A stretch of 64,000 nt of DNA from an uncultured delta proteobacterium (GTDB lineage Bacteria > Desulfobacterota > Binatia > UBA9968): assembly GCA_963760795.1 (NCBI GenBank), contig CAVXEP010000003.1, positions 96,001 to 160,000 on the forward strand. The letters run 5' to 3'. This document shows, one piece after another, positions 4,228 through 64,000 of the stretch. The notes under the pieces were generated by a model, which was not told the DNA's origin, did not search any database, and worked only from the letters and a program-made list of their open reading frames with translations. The translations under genes and the position numbers were made by a program. Numbering within the stretch: the stretch's first letter is position 1; each line of letters opens with the position of its first letter.

Positions 4228-4695
4228 TTAGCGGCCCGCGGCCCGGCGCAGCCGAGGTTTAGGCCGGCCGGAAATCGCCATGCCACGGCGCGGTTTATCG
4301 CGCAGCGGCCGCAGTTGAATCACTTGCGGCTGGGTCTGCTGGGCGACGCGCTGCTGTTGCCATTGCGCCAGGCCGCGGCGCAGATAGTTAGGATCGAGCC
4401 CTAACGTCTCGCAGACGATATTGAAGGAGAAGACTCCTGAATCGTCGAGCTGAAAAACCCAATCCTCGGTGTCGCGAAACTGCGCCTTGCCCTTGCTTTC
4501 GCGGGCGAACAAATATTTTTGAAAACAGGCGACGGCATCCTCCAGAATCGCCAGCATGAGCTTTTTCTCCGGCTCCAAGTGCAGCTTGCGCCGGAAGGTA
4601 TCGAGATATTGATCCGGCAGCAGCGTGTCCGGCTGAAACAATGAAGTCACCCGCTCATCCATACTCAGTCCATTCTCGTAAGGCATGAAAACCAC
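4228..4695 (-). CDS. Conserved hypothetical protein, possible DNA-binding
   Basis: Strong RBS (GGAGGTGG); EPEKKLMLAILEDAV...FSFNIVCETLGLDPNYLRRGL core with an Arg-rich tail. Confidence 0.75.
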   Translation of the reverse strand: MVFMPYENGLSMDERVTSLFQPDTLLPDQYLDTFRRKLHLEPEKKLMLAILEDAVACFQKYLFARESKGKAQFRDTEDWVFQLDDSGVFSFNIVCETLGLDPNYLRRGLAQWQQQRVAQQTQPQVIQLRPLRDKPRRGMAISGRPKPRLRRAAGR

Positions 4696-4750
4696 CTCCC
4701 GTTAGGATGCGGCCTAGATCCCGGTTGCAACACGAAATTTCGCATCCCGG

Positions 4751-5206
4751 CTACGCCGCACTCGAAAGAGAAGAGGAGCCAATAAATTCCCGGCAGGGTG
4801 AACGTCGCAAGCCCGCAATCGTCGTCCCACTGAGCACTGCGTTAATCTTCTGCTGCACTTCGCTCCACACGCCGATCATCGTACAGCGGGGCATTTGGTC
4901 GCAGCCCCGGTGTTCGTCGAGGCACACGTTGACGGCGATCGGTCCGTCGATCGCCTCGATCACATCGTTAAAAGAAATTTCCTCCGGCGCCCGTGCCAGC
5001 GCATAGCCGCCACAGGAGCCGCGCTTCGATTTGATCAAACCACCGCGAATCAGGTCTTGAATGATCTTTTCCAAAAACTTGCGCGGCATGCCCTGCTGTT
5101 TGGCGATCTCGGCAATGGAGCAACATTTTTCGCGGTCTTGGCCCGACAAGTAAATCACCGCGCGTAGACCGTAATCGACCCGCCGCGGAATTTGCATGAG
5201 CGCCAT
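4751..5206 (-). CDS. Rrf2 family transcriptional regulator (Fe-S binding)
   Basis: DYGLRAVIYL, EIAKQQGMPRKFLEKII, SKRGSCGGYALARAPEEI, and C-x6-C-x5-C cluster ligands. Confidence 0.92.
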   Translation of the reverse strand: MALMQIPRRVDYGLRAVIYLSGQDREKCCSIAEIAKQQGMPRKFLEKIIQDLIRGGLIKSKRGSCGGYALARAPEEISFNDVIEAIDGPIAVNVCLDEHRGCDQMPRCTMIGVWSEVQQKINAVLSGTTIAGLRRSPCREFIGSSSLSSAA

Positions 5207-5226
5207 AATGTTTTTTCCCTCATTCG

Positions 5227-6432
5227 TTAACGCGCGCCATCAAGGCTGCGTTCGTCTGGCGGCCGGCGTTGGCTGCCCAACCGCCCCAGGGCCGAAAGCC
5301 CTTGTAAGCGTTGGACGATCGCCGGCACTTTTTCGTTCACATAATTAACTTCCGCTTCGCTATTGAACCGGCTCAAGCTGAAGCGCACCGCCCCCTGCAG
5401 CCAATCGGCCGGCACGTCCATCGCCCGCAAAACATGCGAAGGCTCAGCGGAGCCGGCCGTGCATGCGGAGCCAGTGGAAGCGCAAATCCCCTGCTGGTCT
5501 AGTAGAACCAGCATCGACTCGCCTTCCAAATAACGAAAGCTGATGTTCAAGGTGTTCGGCAGCCGCTCTTGGTTGCGGCCATTGACCCGGCTCTCGGGAC
5601 AAGCGGCCAACAGCAGCGCTTCCAAACGATCGCGCAATTTTCTCTCATGTTCACTGTCCGCGACGATGCGAGCCAGGGCGATCTCGGCGGCTTGACCCAT
5701 GCCGACGATGCCGGCAACGTTTTCCGTGCCGGCGCGCCGATTGCGCTCTTGGTGGCCGCCGATCATAAACGGCGGGAAAGTGATGCCGCGGCGCACATAC
5801 AGCGCGCCGACACCCTTGGGTGCATGAAATTTATGGCCGGATATCGTCAGCAAATCGACCGGCAGCGCGCTGACGTTAATCGGAATCTTACCGGCCGCTT
5901 GAACTGCGTCGACATGGAGCGGAATGGCGTGGGCACGGACCAGCGCGGCAATTTTTTCGATGGGAAAAATCACCCCGGTCTCATTGTTCGCCCACATGAT
6001 CGAAACCAGCGCGGTATCGTCGGACAATGCGGCGGATAATTCGGCCAAGTCGAGCGCGCCGTCCTGATCGACGCTGAGCCAGGTAACCCGATAGCCTTTC
6101 TTCTCAAGATGCTGGCACAAGCCCAACACCGCGGAATGTTCGACCTTGGTTGTGATGATATGACGTTTGTCCGGCCGCGCTTCGAGCATGGCGCGGATCG
6201 CCGCGTTATCGCCCTCGGTACCGCAACTGGTAAAGAGCACTTCCACCGGATCGGCGGCGCCGATAAGAGCCGCCACTTGGGCGCGCGCCTGGGCGATCTT
6301 CTGACCGACATCGCTGCCAAAGCGGTGGATACTCGACGGATTACCGTAAAACTCCGTGTAGTACGGCAGCATCGCCGCGGCGACTTCCGGCAGCACTCGA
6401 GTGGTGGAATTGTTATCGAAGTAAACGTCCAT
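5227..6432 (-). CDS. nifS: Cysteine desulfurase, NifS-type (group I)
   Basis: YFDNNSTT, GNPSSIH, FTSCGTEGDN, WANNETG, ISGHKFHAPKG (PLP Lys), STGSACTAG (catalytic Cys); ATG at 6432. Confidence 0.9.
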   Translation of the reverse strand: MDVYFDNNSTTRVLPEVAAAMLPYYTEFYGNPSSIHRFGSDVGQKIAQARAQVAALIGAADPVEVLFTSCGTEGDNAAIRAMLEARPDKRHIITTKVEHSAVLGLCQHLEKKGYRVTWLSVDQDGALDLAELSAALSDDTALVSIMWANNETGVIFPIEKIAALVRAHAIPLHVDAVQAAGKIPINVSALPVDLLTISGHKFHAPKGVGALYVRRGITFPPFMIGGHQERNRRAGTENVAGIVGMGQAAEIALARIVADSEHERKLRDRLEALLLAACPESRVNGRNQERLPNTLNISFRYLEGESMLVLLDQQGICASTGSACTAGSAEPSHVLRAMDVPADWLQGAVRFSLSRFNSEAEVNYVNEKVPAIVQRLQGLSALGRLGSQRRPPDERSLDGAR

Positions 6433-34341: not shown

Positions 34342-35482
34342 TCAGACCCAGAGGTAATAATAGATCACCGAAAAAATCCCGTCGGTGATGACGATCAGAA
34401 TGATGCCGCTCACCACCGCGTGGGTGGTGGACAAGCCGACGGCGCTGGCGCCGGTCTCGGTTTGCAGGCCGCGCAAGCAGCCGATGGCGGCGATCAGGAT
34501 GCCGAAGACGAAGGCCTTGACCAGCCCGCCGACCAAAGAACCGTAACTCACCGCCGACTGGAGTTGATGAAAAAAAGTGATCAGCGGAAAGCCGAGAGAC
34601 ATCATGACCACGGAGCCGCCCATCACGCCGAACAGATCGGCGAACACCGTGAGCAGCGGCGTCATGACCACGCGCGGCGAGCACCCGCGGCACGACCAGA
34701 AACCGCACCGGCTCCAGCCCCATGGTTTTGAGCGCGTCGATTTCCTCGCGCACCTTCATGGTGCCGATCTCGGCGGCGAAGGCCGAGCCCGAGCGGCCGG
34801 CGAGGATGATCGCGGTCATCAGCGGACCCATCTCGCGCAGCACCGACAAGCCGATCAGGTTGGCGACGAAGATCTCGGCGCCGAATTGGCGCAAGGCGAC
34901 CGCCGCCTGAAACGCCATGATGACGCCGACAAGAAAACTCAGCAAGGCGACGATCGGCAGCGCATTGACGCCGAGCTCTTCGGCGACGAGTAAAGTATCG
35001 CGCCAACGAACCATGCTGGGATGAAGCGCGGCCTTGACCAAGGCAAGACCGAGTTGGCCGATAAAACTAATCACCTCGCGCACATCGTCCCAGAGTTGCA
35101 CCGCCGACCGGCCAACCTCTTCGGCCAGCGGCACGCGAACTTTGGCTTTGCTCGGGGTAGTGTCGCTGCTGCCCTGGGACCAGTCGTCGAGCAGCTCTTG
35201 GAACTCCGGCCGCAGGCCGTGGATCTCCAGCTTGCCGCCGGCTTTTTGTTGCAGCCGGCGCAATTGAATCAGCAGGGCGATGCCGGAACCGTCACAATAA
35301 TCCATCGCTGAAGCGTCGAGATTCACCGTCGCCGCACGCGCCGCCGCCACGAGCCGGATCGAATCCCGCCACACGCGCCCGGTGCTGTCGGCGTCGAGCC
35401 GGCCGTCGATGGCGAGTTTGAGCAGGCCGTTGCGCGGGCCGTCGCTGCGCAGTTTGGCGCCATTGGAAATGGGTGAATCCAT
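34342..35482 (-). CDS. mlaE: MlaE permease with N-terminal STAS domain (frameshift near 34675)
   Basis: STAS LDASAMDYCDGSG; LREMGPLMTAIILAGRSGSAFAAEIGTMKVREEIDAL. Confidence 0.92.
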
Positions 35483-57212: not shown

Positions 57213-57315
57213 AGTTCACCACTTGGCGGGGCACTATATCAAAGTGTCTTTTGGTGTAAACCCGGTTGAGAATTTCGTAGACGCGCTGAAGCCGTTCGGA
57301 ATAGGATTACCGACT

Positions 57316-58762
57316 TTAGGTCCCAAAGACTTCGCGCAGGATGTCCCTGATCGCGTCGGCGGAGGTCTCATCCAATCTCGCGGCACCGGAGAGCGGCACC
57401 GTTTTGACAATCTGGCGCTGCCAACTCACCGCCCCATTTTCGATGCGCACCAATTGCATCTCCACCACCGTCCGCAGCGGCGAACGGCCGTCGGTATGCC
57501 AACGGCGGATCTCCCACAGCCACAACCAACCAGAGAGGTTGGCCGTGCGCGCATTGGCCGCGGCGCTCACACGCATCGAAAGGAAACGACTGCAAGCGGA
57601 CATCGCGCTCTTCCGGCAATGACACGGTAATTTGTCGGTGCTGGAGTTCGCGCTGCAAGGAACCACGAAGCAAGTCCATCACTGTGGGCCGGGACTCCGG
57701 CGACAGCTTGCCGGCCATCTCACCCAAAGAGCGCAACGGATTCGTGCCGGGCAAACGCAAGTCCGAACCTGTGCCATTGCGCACCGAAGCGAGCCATACC
57801 GGCCCCTGGCCCAATGTCGATGGATCAAGCGGCGCTTCAGGCCGCTGGGCGCCACAACCGGCGCACAGAGTAAGAACGAATACGATTAGCCCAGCGACCC
57901 CGCCGCCACGGCGCAAGATGGATTGCACAGCATAGACGGCGAAAATCACCACGCAGCCAAACGCCACATCGGTCGGTCCCAGCGGCAGGTCCAGGCGCAC
58001 GGATAGATAGAACCCTAGGACCGCGATGAAAATACCGATCAACGACGAGAGCGACAGAAACGAACTCATGCCGCGCGCCAAAGTGCGCGCCGCCAGTGGC
58101 GGCAGAACCATGAAACCGAAAACCAAGAGCGGCCCAGCCATGATGACGCCAATGGCAATGCTGAAGCCGCACAGAACGTACAACCAAAAACTCCACTGCG
58201 CGCTGCCGCCGGTGAGCAAGAAAGACAGATCGCGGTCGAAAGAGTTGAGTAAAAATTCCCGGCGAAACAAAACCAGACCGACATAAACCACGCCGTAAAC
58301 GATCGCCAGCAGTTTCAATTCTTCCTTGGATAGGGAAATCACTTCGCCCTTGAGCAAATTGAGGATTTCCAGCTCACCGGCCGGGTTAAAGACAATGAAC
58401 AAAATCGTCAATGCCGACGCCAGGGCGTAAGCCGCCGCGAGCCGGCCTTCCGGCGATCCGGTCGCGTGGCGATCAAGATAGGCAAGCAGTCCCATGCCGG
58501 CCAACGTGAACAACAGTGAACCGGCCATCGCCAATAGCCGTTCGCCGCCACTGCCGTGAGTGAAACCGGTGGCATGATAAATCCAAAACGTAAACGCCAC
58601 GCCGCAGGCGGCGATTTGCGGCAGCGTCAAGCCGAGGAAAACCCGCCGGCGCAGCATCAAGTGCGCACCGACCAGCGGGCAAACCAACGCGAGGATGGCA
58701 CTGCCCAGCAAAGCCGGGAAAAGCAAGAATGACGGACTGAAAATTTCCCAAAAACTCACCAT
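57316..58762 (-). CDS. Metal ABC transporter permease (ZnuB/MntB-like) fused to a C-terminal lipoprotein-like domain (frameshift near 57570)
   Basis: CPLVGAHLMLRRRVFLGLTLPQIAACG, REFLLNSFD, GPLLVFGFMVLPP, DLPLGP; continues in frame to LTLCAGC and a soluble domain. Confidence 0.85.
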
Positions 58763-59461
58763 GGATGTTGTGCCACCGCTCCTTCCTCCCACGCCACTCT
58801 GCCACCGTCGACGCGCAGGACTTTGCTCGGCGACGCTCCGCACCATGCGTAGATCATGACTCGAAAAGAAAACGGCAATGTCTCTCATCGCGATTCAATT
58901 TGACCAGCAGATCGCTGATCGCTTTTTGCGACTCCGGATCGACGCCCGCCAACGGCTCATCCAGAAAGAGAATCTTGGGGCCGACCATCAGAGCGCGGGC
59001 GATCAGCATGCGCTGTCTCTGGCCACCCGACAGCGAAAAAAACGAGCGTCTTGCAAGATGGCTAAACCAACCTGTTCAAGCACATCGTCCAGTCGCTGTT
59101 TTTCTCGTCGCCGGTAGACCTCTGATACGGCTTTAGCCGGCCATAGCCGCCCATCGCCACCACTTCGCGCGCGGTGATCGGAAACGTCGAGTCCAGTGCC
59201 GAGCTCTGCGGCACGTAGCCGAACTCGCTGAGCGCGCAGTTGCGCACCAGCAAACCGCTGATCACGGGCAAGAAAACCCAGAATCGTCCGGAAGATTGTC
59301 GTCTTGCCGGAACCGTTGGGCCCGGCCATCGCGATAAGATCACCGGCACGAATATCGAGGTCGACGTCTTTCAAGAACCGGCGACATCCGTCGTATCCGA
59401 GGTCGTTGCTCGTGAAGACGAAACCAAGGGGAGACGCTAGCTCATCGAAGCTCTCCCGCAT
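58756..59461 (-). CDS. Metal ABC transporter ATPase (ZnuC-like; several frameshifts)
   Basis: [15 protein letters not shown]...[40 protein letters not shown]. Confidence 0.85.
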
Positions 59462-59502
59462 CGGTTATGAGCGCTATCGATCATTGCATCGGAATCGATG
59501 TC

Positions 59503-60433
59503 TTAACTCTTTTTGAGCGCGGCGAGCAAACTCCTGACGTTGTAGTCGATGAATTTGATGTAGGTGTCGGTCTCCGCCGTCGCGCCGGCGATGCTTCTGC
59601 AATCGCACCACAGCGGCACCGGTCTGGCCTGCCAGCTGGCGTCGGATAGCGATCGCTTTGGGCACCGTAGATGATCACCTGCACCTTTTCCTGCTGCATA
59701 TGTTGGACCAGACCAACCAAGTGATTGGGCGTCGGTTCGATGCCCGGCTTGAGCTCGATGCTACCGATCTGCTGAAGCCCGAACCGATTGGCGAAGTAGG
59801 TCCAATCCTGATGGTAGGCCACAATCTTGACCCCTTAAGCGGCGCTGCCATGCTCTGCCAACGGACGATCGCTTTGTCCAACTCCGTCAGATAAGCCGTT
59901 CAGATTCTTGTCGAACGTCGCCTTATGCTGGGGAAAATTTCGCGCCAAGCCGTCGGCGATGTTACGCGCCATAATTCTGCCGTTTACCGGGTCGAGATTG
60001 TAGTGCGGATTGCCCTTGGATGGACATCTCCTTCCGAGCGGTCAAAGGTTCTTGGAACCTCCAGCTACATTGATGCCGTTTGAGCAATCGATATGGCCAG
60101 GCTGACCGGGCATGGATCTTGGAATTGTTCGCCACTTCCAGCAACGCCGGCAGCCATGATATTTCCAGATCCAATCCCATCGCTACGAGCATATCGGCTC
60201 GATTAAGCTTGGGCACGAAACTCGGCTTCACCGGCACCGCATGCATGAATTCCACGCCTCTGGTGAGGCTCTCCACGTCCACCAACTCTTTGCCGATCTG
60301 TTTCGTAATATCCGCCAGATCGGGGATCGTCGTGATCACGCGAATTTGCTGCGCTTCGGCTAAGCCAACCCAGCCGACCGAAACAAGCAGTAAAATTAGA
60401 TAGGCGAGAAAACGTCTTCGTAATCATTTGCAT
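59503..60433 (-). CDS. Metal ABC transporter substrate-binding protein (ZnuA/TroA-like; several frameshifts)
   Basis: VITTIPDLADITKQIG, MHAVPVKPS, GLDLEISWLP, GNPHYNLDP, AYHQDWTYF, ELKPGIEPTPNHL. Confidence 0.88.
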
Positions 60434-60463
60434 CGATGCTTCTCCTTTAAGATAGAGCAACTG

Positions 60464-61716
60464 TTAGCGGGTACGGAATCCATGCGTATGGCTGCCCAAC
60501 ACAGTCGTCCATTGCAGAAAAAATTGGTGACCGCGCTCCGCTTTGTCTTCGCGCACCTTGTCGTCCAGGTAGCTGTATTGGAAGCGCAGCCGGTTAAATT
60601 CGCTCAGGGTCCAGGTCAAGAAACGGCGAGTAGCTGTGAGTCTTCTTACCTGGGCTCGCCAAGTTCGGCGCGTTGTCGTACAGGAATCCTGCGGACCACT
60701 CGCGGTTGAGCTTCATCTCGGCGTAGGCATAGCCGCCCGGGGCGAACATCCGGCGAAAGCCGGATTCACGCTCGACACGCTCGCTGTTGCCGAAAAATTC
60801 GGCGCCAACCGTCACGCCTTGATGCAGGGTGCTGTCGAGCGGTTGGTAGCGATAGGTCAAGTCTAAGCCACTGAGTGTCCGGCTACCGCCATGGGGATCA
60901 GACGGGATGCGAATCGAAGGCGTATAGGCCAAGCTCGTTCCCAGTTCGATGCTGTGATTATCGCTCAAATCGAAATAAGTATTGAGCCGCCCGAGATAGG
61001 TAAACCGGCTCCAGGCGCGTGACTTAGTATCGTCCAAGCGTTCGTTTTCCGCGCCGAGCTTATTGTAACCGCCAACGGTGCCGCGCAAGAAAAACGGCGT
61101 CGGGAAAAGATAACTCAACTCCGCGCCATCGGCTTTGGACTCGCCGCCGACGATGCGCTCCAAAGACAAAGGCGTATTTACAAAGGCATATTCATGGGGA
61201 TGAAACTTGGCCAAGCGGCCAAAGTCGGCGAAAAACCGCCCGCCGCGGGCTTGTAAATTCCACGGCAATGAGGTCGTCACCATCGCCGCCTCCTCGACCT
61301 CGACGCCTTCGCCGCTGCCGTTAAAAAACGCGTAGCCGCGCGCATAGGGATCGATGGAGGCCGCAATGCCGATCTCCGCCGAGCGGAAATTAAACGTCCC
61401 GCCGGCTTTGCTGCGTTGCTCGGCGGTGGCGTCGATGGCCATGCCGATGGCTGGATTAAGCGCCGACGGCGCGCTCTGTACCGCTCTGACTGACTTCTCG
61501 ACTTGATCCACCCGCGTGGCCGTCGTGCCCTTCTCTTGCTCCAACTGGTCGATTCGCTGCAGCGCCTTTTGCAGTTGCTGTTCCATGCCCTTGACCAGCG
61601 ACCGTAACGATTCGAGCTCGGTATTTTGCGCCAAGCCCGCGCTCTGAAATGAATAATAAAACGGTAAATACGGCGGACGCCACCAGTGATGGTGTCCGCA
61701 AAGCGGATGAAACCAT
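60464..61716 (-). CDS. Outer-membrane beta-barrel protein of metal-uptake operons (zinc-regulated receptor/porin-like; two frameshifts)
   Basis: Signal peptide, coiled coil, LNPAIG, AEIGIAASIDPY, VEEAA, GRFFADFGRLAKFHPHE, C-terminal FLQWTTVLGSHTHGF. Confidence 0.85.
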
Positions 61717-61721
61717 GATGA

Positions 61722-61826
61722 GCCTCCCTCACGAGACAACAAAATCCCCTCCGCTCGGGCAAACCCGTACGGAGGGAAAACCAATATCGCTGTAGTTTGA
61801 TGAACTAGACTGAGAGTGAGAGAGGC
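61722..61826 (-). promoter_or_regulatory. RBS-sequestering RNA structure between the leader ORF and the receptor gene
   Basis: mRNA GCCUCUCUCAC (61826-61816) pairs with GUGAGGGAGGC (61732-61722, the SD) over 11 bp with one G-U; it encloses the hairpin UCCCUCCGUACGGG-UUUG-CCCGAGCGGAGGGGA. Confidence 0.75.
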
Positions 61827-62103
61827 GGTCCGCGGACAAACGGACATCGTGGCGCAGTGAAATTCCACTCGCGCATCTGCGGTTCAAGCACAACCGCAAT
61901 TTGCGGCGATGGCACAACGGTCTGGAGAATCGTCAGGCAAAACCATCTGCGCGCGCGCGCCTTGCAGACAACTGCACTGGCTGCTGAGTTGCGACGCAAG
62001 GGAGAAATGAAAATGCAGCGGGAAAAAGAAAATAAACAGCACCGCCGCCGCGCATGCGAAACGGCTGAACGGTCGTTGCTGTTCGAATTCCTAGTACCCG
62101 CAT
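61805..62103 (-). CDS. Putative ribosome-arrest leader peptide (CruR/CutF/DUF2946-like), ~98 aa, ending RGPP
   Basis: Reconstructed across two +1 indels: MRVLEFEQQRPFSRFACAAAVLFIFFFPLHFHFSLASQLSSQCSCLQGARAQMVLPDDSPTVVPSPQIAVVLEPQMREWNFTAPRCPFVRGPPLSLSV*. Confidence 0.7.
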
Positions 62104-62110
62104 GGGAGCA

Positions 62111-62139
62111 AACCTAATCAAAGGCGCTCACCTTGTCAA
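62111..62139 (-). promoter_or_regulatory. Sigma70 promoter giving a probably leaderless transcript
   Basis: Minus strand TTGACA-N17-TAGGTT, then 7 nt to ATG 62103; no SD. Confidence 0.7.
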
Positions 62140-62464
62140 TCAAAACGCTCGCAAACACGGGACAGTCCATCTAACGGAATCGAACGAGAGTCACCGGCAC
62201 CAACACCGGTTCGTTACAGTCCGCTGCCATTTTCACGGCCACTAGATTCAGACCATCCGATAATGCGCTGCTGACCATGCCGCATGGGTCAAATCGCACC
62301 TCGGCACCTGGCGCCGGACTAGTGCCCGGAGCTTCCCTGAATCCCAGCCATTCGCCGTATCGGCTGCTAGCCACGAACGGAGCCGAGACAGACAGCCGAA
62401 ACAGCCGCTAACAGGCCGGCTTTCCAGCTAGATAACCCGTTAGTGAGTTTTTCTAGTGGAACCG

Positions 62465-62494
62465 GTAAACCGATCCGCGGCTTGCGCCGTCTAA
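62465..62494 (+). promoter_or_regulatory. Putative ECF sigma promoter
   Basis: GTAAAC-N17-CGTCTAA ahead of an operon that contains an ECF sigma factor. Confidence 0.55.
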
Positions 62495-62535
62495 CCGCTA
62501 CACGAACGCAAAAACTAGCCTAGGAGGCATTCGAT

Positions 62536-62933
62536 ATGAATAACTAAATCGATCATGGGTACGCGGATTGTTCGTGGCGACTTTGGCGCTGGCAGGCTCG
62601 CCGCTAATTGCCGCGGAATCCAAGATCACCCCGGTGGAGAAAGCCGAGTTGAGACAGGACCGCAAGGAAATTCGCGGCGACCGCCATGAGATCAAAGCCG
62701 ACCGCCGAGAGTTGCGCAAGGACCGCAAAGAACTGCGCTCTGACCGCCGAGAGTTACGCCGCGATCTCAAGAACGGCGCTAGCAAAGAAGAAATCGCCCA
62801 AGACCGCACAGAGATCGCCCAGGGCAAGGCAGAGATTAAAGGCGACAGGAAGGAATTGAAACAGGACCGCGTAGAACGGCGCCAGGATCGCAAAGAGCTG
62901 CGAAGCGATCGCCGCGACGCCGTAAAGAACTAA
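62536..62933 (+). CDS. Secreted heptad-repeat (DRxE(L/I)R/K) protein; 5' end frameshifted
   Basis: RBS AGGAGG at 62522; signal peptide LFVATLALAGSPLIAA; repeats DRKEIRG DRHEIKA DRRELRK DRKELRS DRRELRR. Confidence 0.75.
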
Positions 62934-63005
62934 CCGGGAGTCGACCATGGCATTCCTTCAAGCGGCGGACAGAACTTGAATTCTTCCGCCGCCCCCTCCA
63001 CACTG

Positions 63006-63613
63006 ATGCGAGCGCGCGTGAATCGACGAAAGGCAGGACCAGCCAATTGGCGAACTCTGGGGATGAGGAGTTGGTGGCGTTGGCCCAACGGGGCGACCGC
63101 CGGGCGTTCGAAGAACTGATCGAGCGCCACAAACAGAAGGCCTATAATATCGCTTTGGCTTCGCCCGCGATCGCGAGGAGGCCAAGGATCTGTCGCAAGA
63201 GGCGTTCTTGAAAGCGTTTACTTACTTGAAAAACTTTGACGGCCGTTCGAGTTTCTACACTTGGTTTTATCGCATCGTCGTCAACGTCTGTCTCGACTAC
63301 AAGCGGCGCGCCAAGCGCATCTCCGCCGGCGAGTTTGACGAGACCATCGAGAGTCAAATGGAACCGTCGCATAATCCGGCCCAGCCGCTGGCGCCGGAAC
63401 AACATGTGCTGGCCGAGACAGCTTTCGCGTAAAGTCGACGCCGCCCTGCAAAAGCTGCCGGCGAAACAGCGCATGGCATTTATTTTGAAAAACAATCAAG
63501 GACTATCGATTAGAGAAATCGCCGCGACCATGGAAACCGCCGAGGGCACAGTGAAAGTGCATTTGCACCGCGCGGTCACCACGCTGCGGCAAAGCTTGGC
63601 GGAATTGGTCTAG
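63006..63613 (+). CDS. ECF RNA polymerase sigma factor (two frameshifts)
   Basis: DEELVALAQRGDRRAFEELIERH, EAKDLSQEAFLKA, FDGRSSFYTWFYRIVVN, LPAKQRMAFIL, SIREIA...GTVKVHLHRA. Confidence 0.9.
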
Positions 63614-63621
63614 GAGGAATT

Positions 63622-64000
63622 ATGACGGAGCGAATCAACCCGGCAGCAAGCGCCTGCGCAGACTTGGAAGCGGACCTCGTGCTGCTTCATTACGGCGACT
63701 TGGACGGCGCCGAACGCGCGCGGCTTCAAGCCCATGCCGCCAATTGCGCCGGCTGCTCGGGCTACTTGAACGAACTCGCATCGCTGCTGCCGCTGACGGT
63801 CACAGCCGACACGCCGCCGCAAGAGTTCTGGATGAACTATAACCGTGAGTTGCGCCACAAGATCGACGCCGCGGTTGAAAACAAAACTTGGTGGCAAAAT
63901 TTCACGGCGATTTTCAAACCTGGCTACCTATCCGCCCTCGCCACCGCCGCGGTGGTGGTCCTGGCGCTGACCTTCACCCTCGGTGGCGGCCTGTGGCCCG
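63622..64000 (+). CDS. Zinc-binding anti-sigma factor (zf-HC2), runs off the window
   Basis: MTERINPAASACADLEADL...LQAHAANCAGC (H-x3-C-x2-C) followed by a TM helix; directly after the ECF sigma. Confidence 0.88.
   Translation, partial: MTERINPAASACADLEADLVLLHYGDLDGAERARLQAHAANCAGCSGYLNELASLLPLTVTADTPPQEFWMNYNRELRHKIDAAVENKTWWQNFTAIFKPGYLSALATAAVVVLALTFTLGGGLWP

Follow-up and report, generated by a model that had tools for sequence, protein, structure and literature searches.

A candidate arrest-peptide leader whose tail is predicted to pair with the next Shine-Dalgarno sequence, upstream of a zinc-type uptake operon

This analysis concerns a small hidden gene in a window of 64,000 nucleotides (nt) from an uncultured delta proteobacterium (GTDB lineage Bacteria; Desulfobacterota; Binatia; UBA9968; GenBank assembly GCA_963760795.1, contig CAVXEP010000003.1, positions 96,001 to 160,000 of the forward strand). 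The gene lies on the minus strand, directly before an outer-membrane gene and a metal importer of ZnuA-ZnuC-ZnuB type, and codes for a leader peptide with a pair of His, a pair of Cys and a C-terminal R-G-P-P. On balance, and judging from sequence, we favour the reading that it acts in cis, as a leader of the CruR/CutF kind, to control this zinc-type uptake operon. The preliminary description of the locus had proposed a switch of this sort for Zn, Mn, Ni or Co; its interpretation appears supported at every point that could be addressed in the letters, and the choice of metal can probably be narrowed toward zinc.

In the favoured reading, a sigma-70-type promoter would start a leaderless messenger RNA (mRNA) whose first product is a peptide of 98 amino acids (aa), with an N-terminal signal or anchor running to LPLHxH, a CxC motif 10-12 residues on, a linker of 44 residues and R-(G/A)-P-P. 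Arrest would set in when the two Pro codons occupy the P and A sites, and the ribosome would then cover the pyrimidine-rich last codons of the leader, which would otherwise pair with the Shine-Dalgarno (SD) region of the next gene. The SD would then be free for translation of the porin-like channel gene heading the importer operon. Binding of metal, most probably Zn(II), to the His2/Cys2 set of the growing peptide would compact it and release the arrest; the ribosome would terminate, the long-range helix would close around an inner hairpin and uptake would be switched off. The precedent of CruR and CutF, with a stalled ribosome melting a stem-loop at a ribosome-binding site (RBS), supports this reading. 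The open reading frame (ORF), motifs, fixed spacing, promoter layout, conserved and co-varying helix and zinc-type context are what the sequences themselves show.

The leader gene and its peptide family

To collect related loci, a set with a single genome for each species was searched with the protein of the downstream outer-membrane gene. In all, 114 stretches were pattern-matched, of which 22 code for a relative (loci L001-L022, identity 61-92%), under the labels Binatia, 'delta proteobacterium', Thermodesulfobacteriota, Syntrophobacter, Udaeobacter, Acidiferrales and Eisenbacteria. The cassette of leader and outer-membrane gene was seen in metagenome-assembled genomes (MAGs) labelled as several phyla; this could be due to gene transfer or to uneven binning or labelling. 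The features of the window leader are as follows.

62134..62139, minus strand: -35 hexamer TTGACA, read directly; TTGAC is invariant in a 7-sequence alignment
62111..62116, minus strand: -10-like hexamer TAGGTT, 17 nt past the -35 hexamer and 7 nt before the ATG
61805..62103, minus strand: leader ORF, ATG at 62103-62101 and TAG at 61807-61805; 98 aa without two extra bases
62007..62015, minus strand: HxH codons (H-F-H, within LHFH) at the end of the N-terminal hydrophobic segment; H30 and H32 invariant in 22/22
61968..61976, minus strand: CxC codons (C-S-C, within QCSC); C43 and C45 invariant, followed by a conserved G-x-R
61835..61967, minus strand: linker of fixed length and free sequence (a 'ruler'), 44 residues from CxC to R
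61823..61834, minus strand: R-G-P-P codons, the candidate arrest motif; R, P and P invariant, then five codons and TAG

An uninterrupted leader ORF of 97-102 aa, counted from the chosen start, stands directly 5' of the outer-membrane gene in 22/22 loci. The window copy is spread over three frames. It had been described as an ORF of about 98 aa hidden by two indels, and the alignment bears this out: two bases, near 62071 and 61923, are unique to the window when compared with six close loci. Frame breaks occur in several genes nearby as well (two in the outer-membrane gene, others in ZnuA, ZnuC and an extracytoplasmic-function (ECF) sigma gene), so an assembly or sequencing error is the likely cause, and assembly error is probably the simplest reading of the two extra bases. 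A hidden Markov model (HMM) of the leader family matched two frames of the window stretch, with expect values (E) of 2.4e-21 and 1.3e-6. Frameshifts are frequent throughout the region 57300-64000 (the inspected genes have roughly one every few hundred bases), so that automatic ORF calls in the window are unreliable.

The promoter given in the preliminary description, TTGACA-N17-TAGGTT placed 7 nt before an ATG without SD, was read directly, and its layout is conserved. No purine-rich SD precedes the leader ATG in the window. TTGAC lies 24-37 nt upstream of the chosen start in 21/23 sequences, and at -35 to -37 in 18/23; it is absent at the leaders of L010 and L018. An in-frame GTG was seen by eye at the matching distance from TTGAC in L006, L017 and L012. 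Across loci, a TAnnnT or TAnnnn hexamer follows the TTGAC element after 17-18 nt and the start codon comes 6-8 nt further on; with so short a distance from the -10 element, the mRNA would be leaderless or nearly so. A consensus promoter scan called 0 promoters, and missed this one because the -10 hexamer fits the consensus at 3/6 positions. No inverted repeat of at least 8 nt was found at the leader promoter, in agreement with the earlier statement that a Fur/Zur-type palindrome is not evident there.

Ten columns are invariant in the alignment of the 22 leaders, namely L-P-L-H-x-H, C-x-C and R-x-P-P, and R14, G48 and R50 are kept in at least 90%. The LHFH, QCSC and C-terminal RGPP reported for the window are present, and the HxH, CxC and R-x-P-P on which they centre are invariant in 22/22; the window leader departs from the family in the first Leu of LPLHxH, which is Phe. 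Each invariant residue is encoded by 2-6 synonymous codons (for example His by CAT 16 times and CAC 6 times, Arg by CGC 14 times and CGT 8 times, Cys by both TGC and TGT), which argues that selection acts on the peptide.

The distance from the end of CxC to the Arg is 44 residues in 21/22 leaders and 45 in L019, a long-read MAG; the gap from HxH to CxC is 10-12 residues. The C-terminal motif is RGPP in 13 leaders, RAPP in 8 and RSPP in one. Five residues follow PP in 19/22 leaders, and overall PP lies 1-6 residues from the C-terminus. Mean pairwise identity is 0.61 from the hydrophobic segment to HxH, 0.64 in CxC..G.R and 0.86 in RxPP, and falls to 0.12 at the N-terminus and 0.20 in the linker. 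The linker had been called Pro-rich; it proved neither notably Pro-rich nor conserved. Its fixed length and free sequence point to a ruler and not to a folded domain. The N-terminal hydrophobic run follows the conserved Arg, and the AF2 model (pLDDT 63.7) has one helix at residues 3-43 with nothing structured beyond.

The leader family profile, run over the fetched loci, gave three further members, at L022:6358-6666, L012:4132-4458 and L018:4320-4757. All three paralogues have the layout TTGACA-N17-TAnnnn-7/8 nt-start and exactly 44 residues from CxC to R (3/3), so that the spacing holds in 24/25 family members.

Pfam and NCBIfam gave no match for the three window leader frames. Among 21/22 intact leaders (L009 left out), Pfam gave only sub-threshold chance matches (DUF5684 0.16, KASH 0.066 and 1.7, DUF5472 0.32); NCBIfam gave no match for 3 leaders, and tblastn of one leader against plasmids gave none either. 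The leader family is real and unannotated, and by these searches it has no Pfam or NCBIfam model. Its Atlas neighbours include a DUF2607 cluster at 0.94 (165/256 features) and, at rank 15 and 0.93, a cluster with PF11162 on 54% of its members, which is a lead only.

The small protein might itself be a working component of uptake, such as a periplasmic metal chaperone anchored in the membrane or a transporter accessory subunit, with R-x-P-P and the helix tuning its own yield or stoichiometry. Its conserved membrane segment and His2/Cys2 set would fit such a role, as would the DUF2607 cluster among its nearest Atlas neighbours and the precedent of Vibrio cholerae ZrgD (101 aa, a single transmembrane segment, in a zinc operon; PMC9820375). 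We nevertheless consider it very unlikely. More than half of the peptide varies freely in sequence but not by a single residue in length, the model is unstructured past residue 43, and RGPP is described as strongly avoided outside arrest peptides (PMC12992588). The gene moreover always comes first, its mRNA would be leaderless, and the next SD stands 75-110 nt further on.

Predicted pairing between the leader tail and the next SD

Three RNA elements lie between the candidate arrest motif and the start of the outer-membrane gene.

61816..61826, minus strand: anti-SD arm GCCUCUCUCAC, beginning at the last base of the first Pro codon and reaching into the codons of the tail
61722..61732, minus strand: SD arm GUGAGGGAGGC of the outer-membrane gene, from the predicted fold
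61745..61778, minus strand: inner hairpin with CCCUCC/GGAGGG arms, then a U-rich stretch; from the predicted fold, enclosed by the SD helix

An 11-nt pairing of the leader end with the next SD had been noted by inspection; in the predicted fold GCCUCUCUCAC and GUGAGGGAGGC form 11 base pairs (bp), one of them G-U. No more than about 15 nt separate the anti-SD arm from the presumed P-site codon. For the segment 61711-61834 a folding energy of -50.1 kcal/mol was obtained (z = -4.16), and 0/200 shuffles were as good. The same arrangement, with the SD paired to the last codons of the leader around the inner hairpin, is predicted in 23/23 single-sequence folds, over a leader-to-SD distance of 75-110 nt. 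The pairing probability of the SD core with the first 40 nt past the R codon was 0.73-1.00, with a mean of 0.93 over the 23 sequences. The predicted pairing was conserved in the orthologous loci, a point on which the preliminary description could have been refuted.

It is also locus-specific. The paired tail tract stands at clade-dependent codon offsets, and the flanks of the SD vary by locus with matching changes in the tail. The duplex energy of a tail with its own SD was -19.8 kcal/mol, compared with -16.5 kcal/mol with the SD of another locus, and 0/10,000 permutations reached the former value.

These results also dispose of an artefact, in which the ORF would be stitched together from three frames and the helix would be a chance complementarity of Pro-Pro codons and SD. 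The window ORF does need two frame corrections, and CCNCCN is inherently complementary to GGAGG. Against this stand the uninterrupted ORF in 22/22 independent species-level genomes, family HMM values of E 1e-30 to 1e-39, the synonymous variation of the invariant residues and the permutation result just given. The artefact was rejected on these four grounds and its residual probability is negligible.

Known riboswitches are not the explanation, since Rfam gave no match over the whole window at gathering scores, and two chance-level matches only over 61300-62600 at E up to 10.

MAFFT and RNAalifold applied to 7 close sequences gave 27 pairs, 6 of them with compensatory changes, and a covariance model (R1) was built from these sequences. 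R1 recovered 19/23 true sites, missing L013, L014, L015 and L018, and gave an extra match after the L022 paralogue (E 0.24). A further match on the minus strand of the window at 34913-35036 (10.2 bits, E 5.5) has no leader ORF by the leader profile and was taken as chance. In a 21-row alignment 85.6% of cells were paired, compared with 70.7% in shuffles (0/500) and 46-62% with partners slid; in a 16-row alignment (E up to 0.1) the values were 84.2%, 74.1% (0/500) and 44-63%. Both alignments were fitted to the model and are biased toward it. All pairs of the inner hairpin (10/10) change on both sides, with 88-90% of cells paired.

The strength of the inner hairpin bears on a second possibility, that the same arrest leader has a transcriptional output. 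The ribosome would mask a C-rich Rho site, or the inner hairpin with its U tail would cause pausing or termination; release of the stall would then end transcription before the outer-membrane gene, and the SD helix would be secondary. We regard this as rather unlikely. The 60 nt from the R codon are C-rich in 23/23 sequences (C/G 1.2-3.2, mean 1.97), much like the Rho-utilisation (rut) site of cruR, which was mapped to a C>G region (PMC9426467), and the inner hairpin with its ten co-varying pairs is the best-supported helix. U-rich sequence follows the hairpin in several loci (for example L010, L007 and L014), and the L018 paralogue is followed by a terminator-like stem of about 8 bp and a U run, seen by eye. 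On the other side, a terminator scan did not call the inner hairpin of the window copy, and in most loci the U tract does not adjoin the stem. The C-rich tract is needed equally by the anti-SD arm, and a pure Rho mechanism would leave the locus-specific complementarity to the SD flanks without a role. A Rho-dependent output and the SD helix are, however, compatible with each other.

With a presumed 23-nt ribosome footprint blocked, the Pro codons being placed in the P and A sites, the folds lost about 6-23 kcal/mol of stability. According to the folding models as a whole, the tail-SD helix is real and conserved, and a clean on/off switch at equilibrium is not predicted.

The downstream operon, its metal and the weighing of the mechanism

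The genes that follow the leader in the window are listed below.

60464..61716, minus strand: gene for a porin-like outer-membrane beta-barrel that has a signal peptide and a coiled coil at its N-terminus; two frameshifts, near 61645 and 60615
59481..60433, minus strand: gene for a ZnuA-type substrate-binding protein, limits approximate; in several frames, fragments matched by PF01297
58854..59461, minus strand: ATP-binding cassette (ABC) ATPase gene (ZnuC/AztA-like), frame-broken
57368..58888, minus strand: ABC-3 permease gene (ZnuB/AztB-like) with a C-terminal extension of about 190 aa

The first gene had been described as an outer-membrane receptor. The outer-membrane assignment stands; the receptor does not. 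A TonB-dependent receptor has a plug domain and a 22-strand barrel, is about 700 aa or more in length and matches Pfam TonB_dep_Rec. The protein found here has about 416 aa; beyond its signal peptide and coiled coil, the model shows about 16 strands. It gave no family in Pfam or NCBIfam. A TonB-dependent receptor was rejected on its length, the lack of a Pfam match, the strand number and the porin-like model. The best structural matches were the porins AlgE, OprP and OmpT, which are indicative only at a template-modelling (TM) score of about 0.4 and a model pLDDT of 47.8. In the Atlas it is surrounded by unnamed clusters from Binatota/Acidobacteriota, one of which offers a lead to Porin_O_P (22% of members). 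The orthologues of the outer-membrane protein all keep (17/17) two HxH motifs, FHPHE and HTHGF (window 61191-61205 and 60476-60490, minus strand), which would suit metal selection in an outer-membrane channel.

The next three genes of the operon, for a PF01297 binding protein, the ABC ATPase and the ABC-3 permease, make up the importer set of cluster A-I, and the ZnuA-C-B-like operon of the preliminary description was recovered as such. Intact ZnuA-type orthologues match PF01297 at E 6e-50. The best NCBIfam matches of the importer were AztC/AztA/AztB and ZnuA, all under cut-off, and the equivalog cut-offs of AztC, ZnuA and MntC were not reached by the importer proteins. The binding protein was aligned with PsaA, and its ligand positions, which we take from the PsaA and ZnuA structures, have His where PsaA has its Mn-type Glu. 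Of the three His at these positions, one is present in 16 of 17 binding proteins and the other two in all 17. Permease fusions of 480-487 aa also occur in L010 (8807-10270) and L016 (8857-10299). The C-terminal extension of the permease, conserved and about 190 aa long, has no Pfam or NCBIfam match and starts with a lipobox-like LxxCAGC stretch.

The paralogous leaders extend this context. After the L022 leader come genes for MerC, DUF3299, ZrgA (PF10986, 133.8 bits; cut-off 27.4), an ABC ATPase with a MacB/FtsX permease, and a peptidase of NlpC/P60 type; those of L012 and L018 each stand before an NlpC/P60 gene. The family therefore heads two unrelated zinc-linked importers and wall hydrolases of cysteine type. 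In a Vibrio study, wall endopeptidases reportedly belong to the Zur response (10.1101/398487).

Since importers of both Znu and ZrgA type follow leaders of the family, gene context favours zinc as the metal, short of proving it. An arrest leader sensing another cue (copper, another divalent metal, periplasmic thiol redox state through CxC, or Sec/YidC insertion capacity through the anchor) seems quite unlikely. HxH and CxC can bind Cu, Ni and Co, CutF-like clusters of His and Cys are proposed for several metals (PMC9973294), and RAPP/RGPP upstream ORFs are also reported before DsbA/thioredoxin and sec genes (PMC12992588). The binding proteins of cluster A-I include Mn and Fe carriers, with scores near those of the Zn types. 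The two unrelated zinc-type importers, one with its three His and the other of ZrgA type, speak against such a cue, and no copper, sec or dsb gene was seen beside the 25 leaders examined. On the same side, in L016 a cation diffusion facilitator (CDF) exporter with a ZT_dimer domain (4419-5363, minus strand) lies divergently upstream, adjoining the leader promoter.

Several points weigh against the favoured mechanism. MAFFT and RNAalifold applied to all 23 intergenic segments gave 0 pairs; a plain alignment is out of register here, since the helix stands at different codon offsets. The covariation of anti-SD and SD, named earlier as a check, is present as matching locus-specific changes, but in the 16-row alignment just 3/9 pairs of the SD helix change on both sides. 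Blocking the ribosome footprint raised the mean P(unpaired) of the SD only from 0.04 to 0.25 (range 0.00-0.45), and in the blocked minimum-free-energy folds of the 23 sequences the SD was paired again: 11 of the folds use an intergenic partner, 7 use what is left of the tail and 5 use sequence further downstream. As the blocked SD pairs again at equilibrium, a clean on/off switch would need kinetic folding; we infer that the RNA would have to fold during transcription and form the inner hairpin first. Shuffling the tail raised P(unpaired) of the SD only to 0.14, so that the pairing is in part generic pyrimidine-purine complementarity, and Pro-Pro codons are anti-SD-like by nature. Downstream of the paralogous leaders, a tail-to-SD helix like that of the main loci was not found. 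CruR is reported to work with its export signal dispensable and its output through Rho (PMC9426467). As to the metal, Mn-type NCBIfam scores of the importer lie near the Zn-type scores, and the fourth ligand position of the binding protein is variable (S in 9, Q in 4 and D in 3 of 17). Arrest, metal binding, the identity of the metal, the sign of the response and the sensing compartment enter the mechanism by inference.

Bacterial zinc uptake is, in the textbooks, a matter of Zur-controlled transcription. A leader peptide that reads zinc, if true, would add a second, faster layer of control, would carry the principle of CruR and CutF beyond copper and would be the first zinc-responsive cis-acting translational sensor. 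More broadly, and tentatively, paralogous leaderless HxH/CxC/RxPP leaders, one for each unit, may control a zinc regulon after transcription in Binatia, Acidobacteriota and lineages near them; the units would be the porin with its Znu-type importer, the ZrgA-type importer and zinc-independent NlpC/P60 wall hydrolases. This joint proposal, to which we give somewhat less than even confidence, takes in two further elements. The spacing of about 44 residues is common to these leaders and to the unrelated-looking CruR, and would therefore reflect a general geometric rule for metal-sensing arrest peptides, set by tunnel length and the distance to the sensing site; Vibrio ZrgD (DUF2607) could be an element of the same kind. 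The spacing, fixed in nearly all members over free sequence, is a natural experiment on the distance from sensing motif to peptidyl-transferase centre. Gene callers do not see the leader family where an assembly is error-prone, as in the window, and the unnamed porin-like family with its two invariant HxH motifs is a candidate outer-membrane zinc channel.

Three genes lie divergently upstream of the leader on the plus strand. At 62568-62933 is a secreted protein with charged coiled-coil-like repeats (D/E-R-x-E-L-R-x-D-R), at 63047-63613 an ECF sigma factor in three frames, and at 63622-63999 a zf-HC2 anti-sigma factor that continues past the window end.

Comparison with known arrest leaders

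The likeness to CruR and CutF, with a different ligand set, had been proposed at the outset and was upheld. CruR (Bp2923 of Bordetella pertussis, DUF2946/PF11162) is described as a copper-sensing exported leader that acts through relief of arrest and Rho termination (PMC9426467). As far as it is described there, it shares with the present leader the first place in a metal-uptake operon, an N-terminal export signal (putative here), a Cys motif with a fixed linker and a C-terminal R-A-P-P, a long structured intergenic region and the expected logic, in which metal relieves the arrest and turns uptake off. Its linker has 45 residues, conserved within 1-2, compared with 44 here; the addition of five residues impaired copper control (PMC9426467). 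It arrests with Pro codons in the P and A sites, and both RAPP and RGPP arrest ribosomes (PMC12992588). The differences lie in the ligands (CxC in 22/22 together with HxH here, CXXC in CruR), the length (about 98 aa, against about 145 aa) and the residues after PP (five, against three). The context here is of zinc type, on a leaderless mRNA, and that of CruR is copper; downstream stand a porin-like barrel and an ABC importer here, a TonB-dependent transporter in CruR. The output would use a conserved SD-sequestering helix here and is Rho-dependent in CruR. PF11162 matched 0/21 leaders (E up to 10), 0/3 paralogues (0.01) and none of the window fragments. Judged by profile the leader is not a DUF2946 protein; by architecture and spacing it is DUF2946-like.

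CutF of Rhodobacter capsulatus is a small sensor that is exported and carries a proline stalling motif at its C-terminus; its copper-induced stalling melts a stem-loop over the next RBS (PMC9973294; 10.1101/2025.02.05.636593), a step shared here as a proposal. The sign differs: copper induces stalling and turns on a detoxifying oxidase in CutF, whereas metal should switch the importer off here. The rules for 'CutF-like' proteins given in PMC9973294 (<150 aa, PP in the last 15 residues, an N-terminal signal and a same-strand gene within 1000 nt) fit the family, with its 97-102 aa, PP near the end, candidate N-terminal signal and downstream gene at 75-110 nt. That work lists 29 CutF-like clusters with Cys, His or mixed motifs, and its authors already proposed that other His/Cys-motif clusters sense other metals, suggesting Ni/Co sensing for His-only members beside HupE/UreJ (PMC9973294). 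Zinc, ZnuA, ABC and porin do not occur in its main text, and the family may sit in its supplementary cluster lists. A bacterial zinc-responsive arrest or leader peptide was not found in the literature searched, where the family may stand unnamed in a published supplementary list; according to the authors of the CruR study, neither Cu nor Zn has a known riboswitch (PMC9426467).

In SecM, a stalled ribosome unmasks the downstream SD. ApdA, ApdP, ApcA and SecM have in common with the present leader a C-terminal R-(A/G)-P-P, a localisation signal (putative here) and a place upstream of the regulated gene, and are described as monitors of Sec/YidC that are released by translocation force (PMC12992588). 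The invariant His2/Cys2 set and the metal importers downstream are found here only. The same paper reports that, arrest peptides aside, bacterial proteomes avoid no other tetrapeptide as strongly as RGPP, and lists TonB receptors, YcnI, PCuAC, PepSY, DsbA, thioredoxin and sec genes as neighbours of RAPP/RGPP small ORFs; zinc and ZnuA do not occur in its main text (PMC12992588).

Vibrio ZrgD (DUF2607/PF10795), a protein of unknown function, is described as having about 100 aa and one transmembrane segment; its gene stands beside zrgA in the zrg operon for zinc uptake, which is under Zur control (PMC9817125, PMC9820375). It resembles the leader in size, membrane segment, zinc operon and the DUF2607 Atlas neighbour, and the L022 paralogue likewise belongs to a ZrgA/DUF3299 operon; the likeness is by description and a lead only, and PF10795 matched none of the 21 leaders scanned. 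Read from its sequence and surroundings, the window element is a leader of the CruR/CutF kind, set apart by its His2/Cys2 ligands, its leaderless promoter, a predicted SD-sequestering helix and a putative regulon of zinc type.

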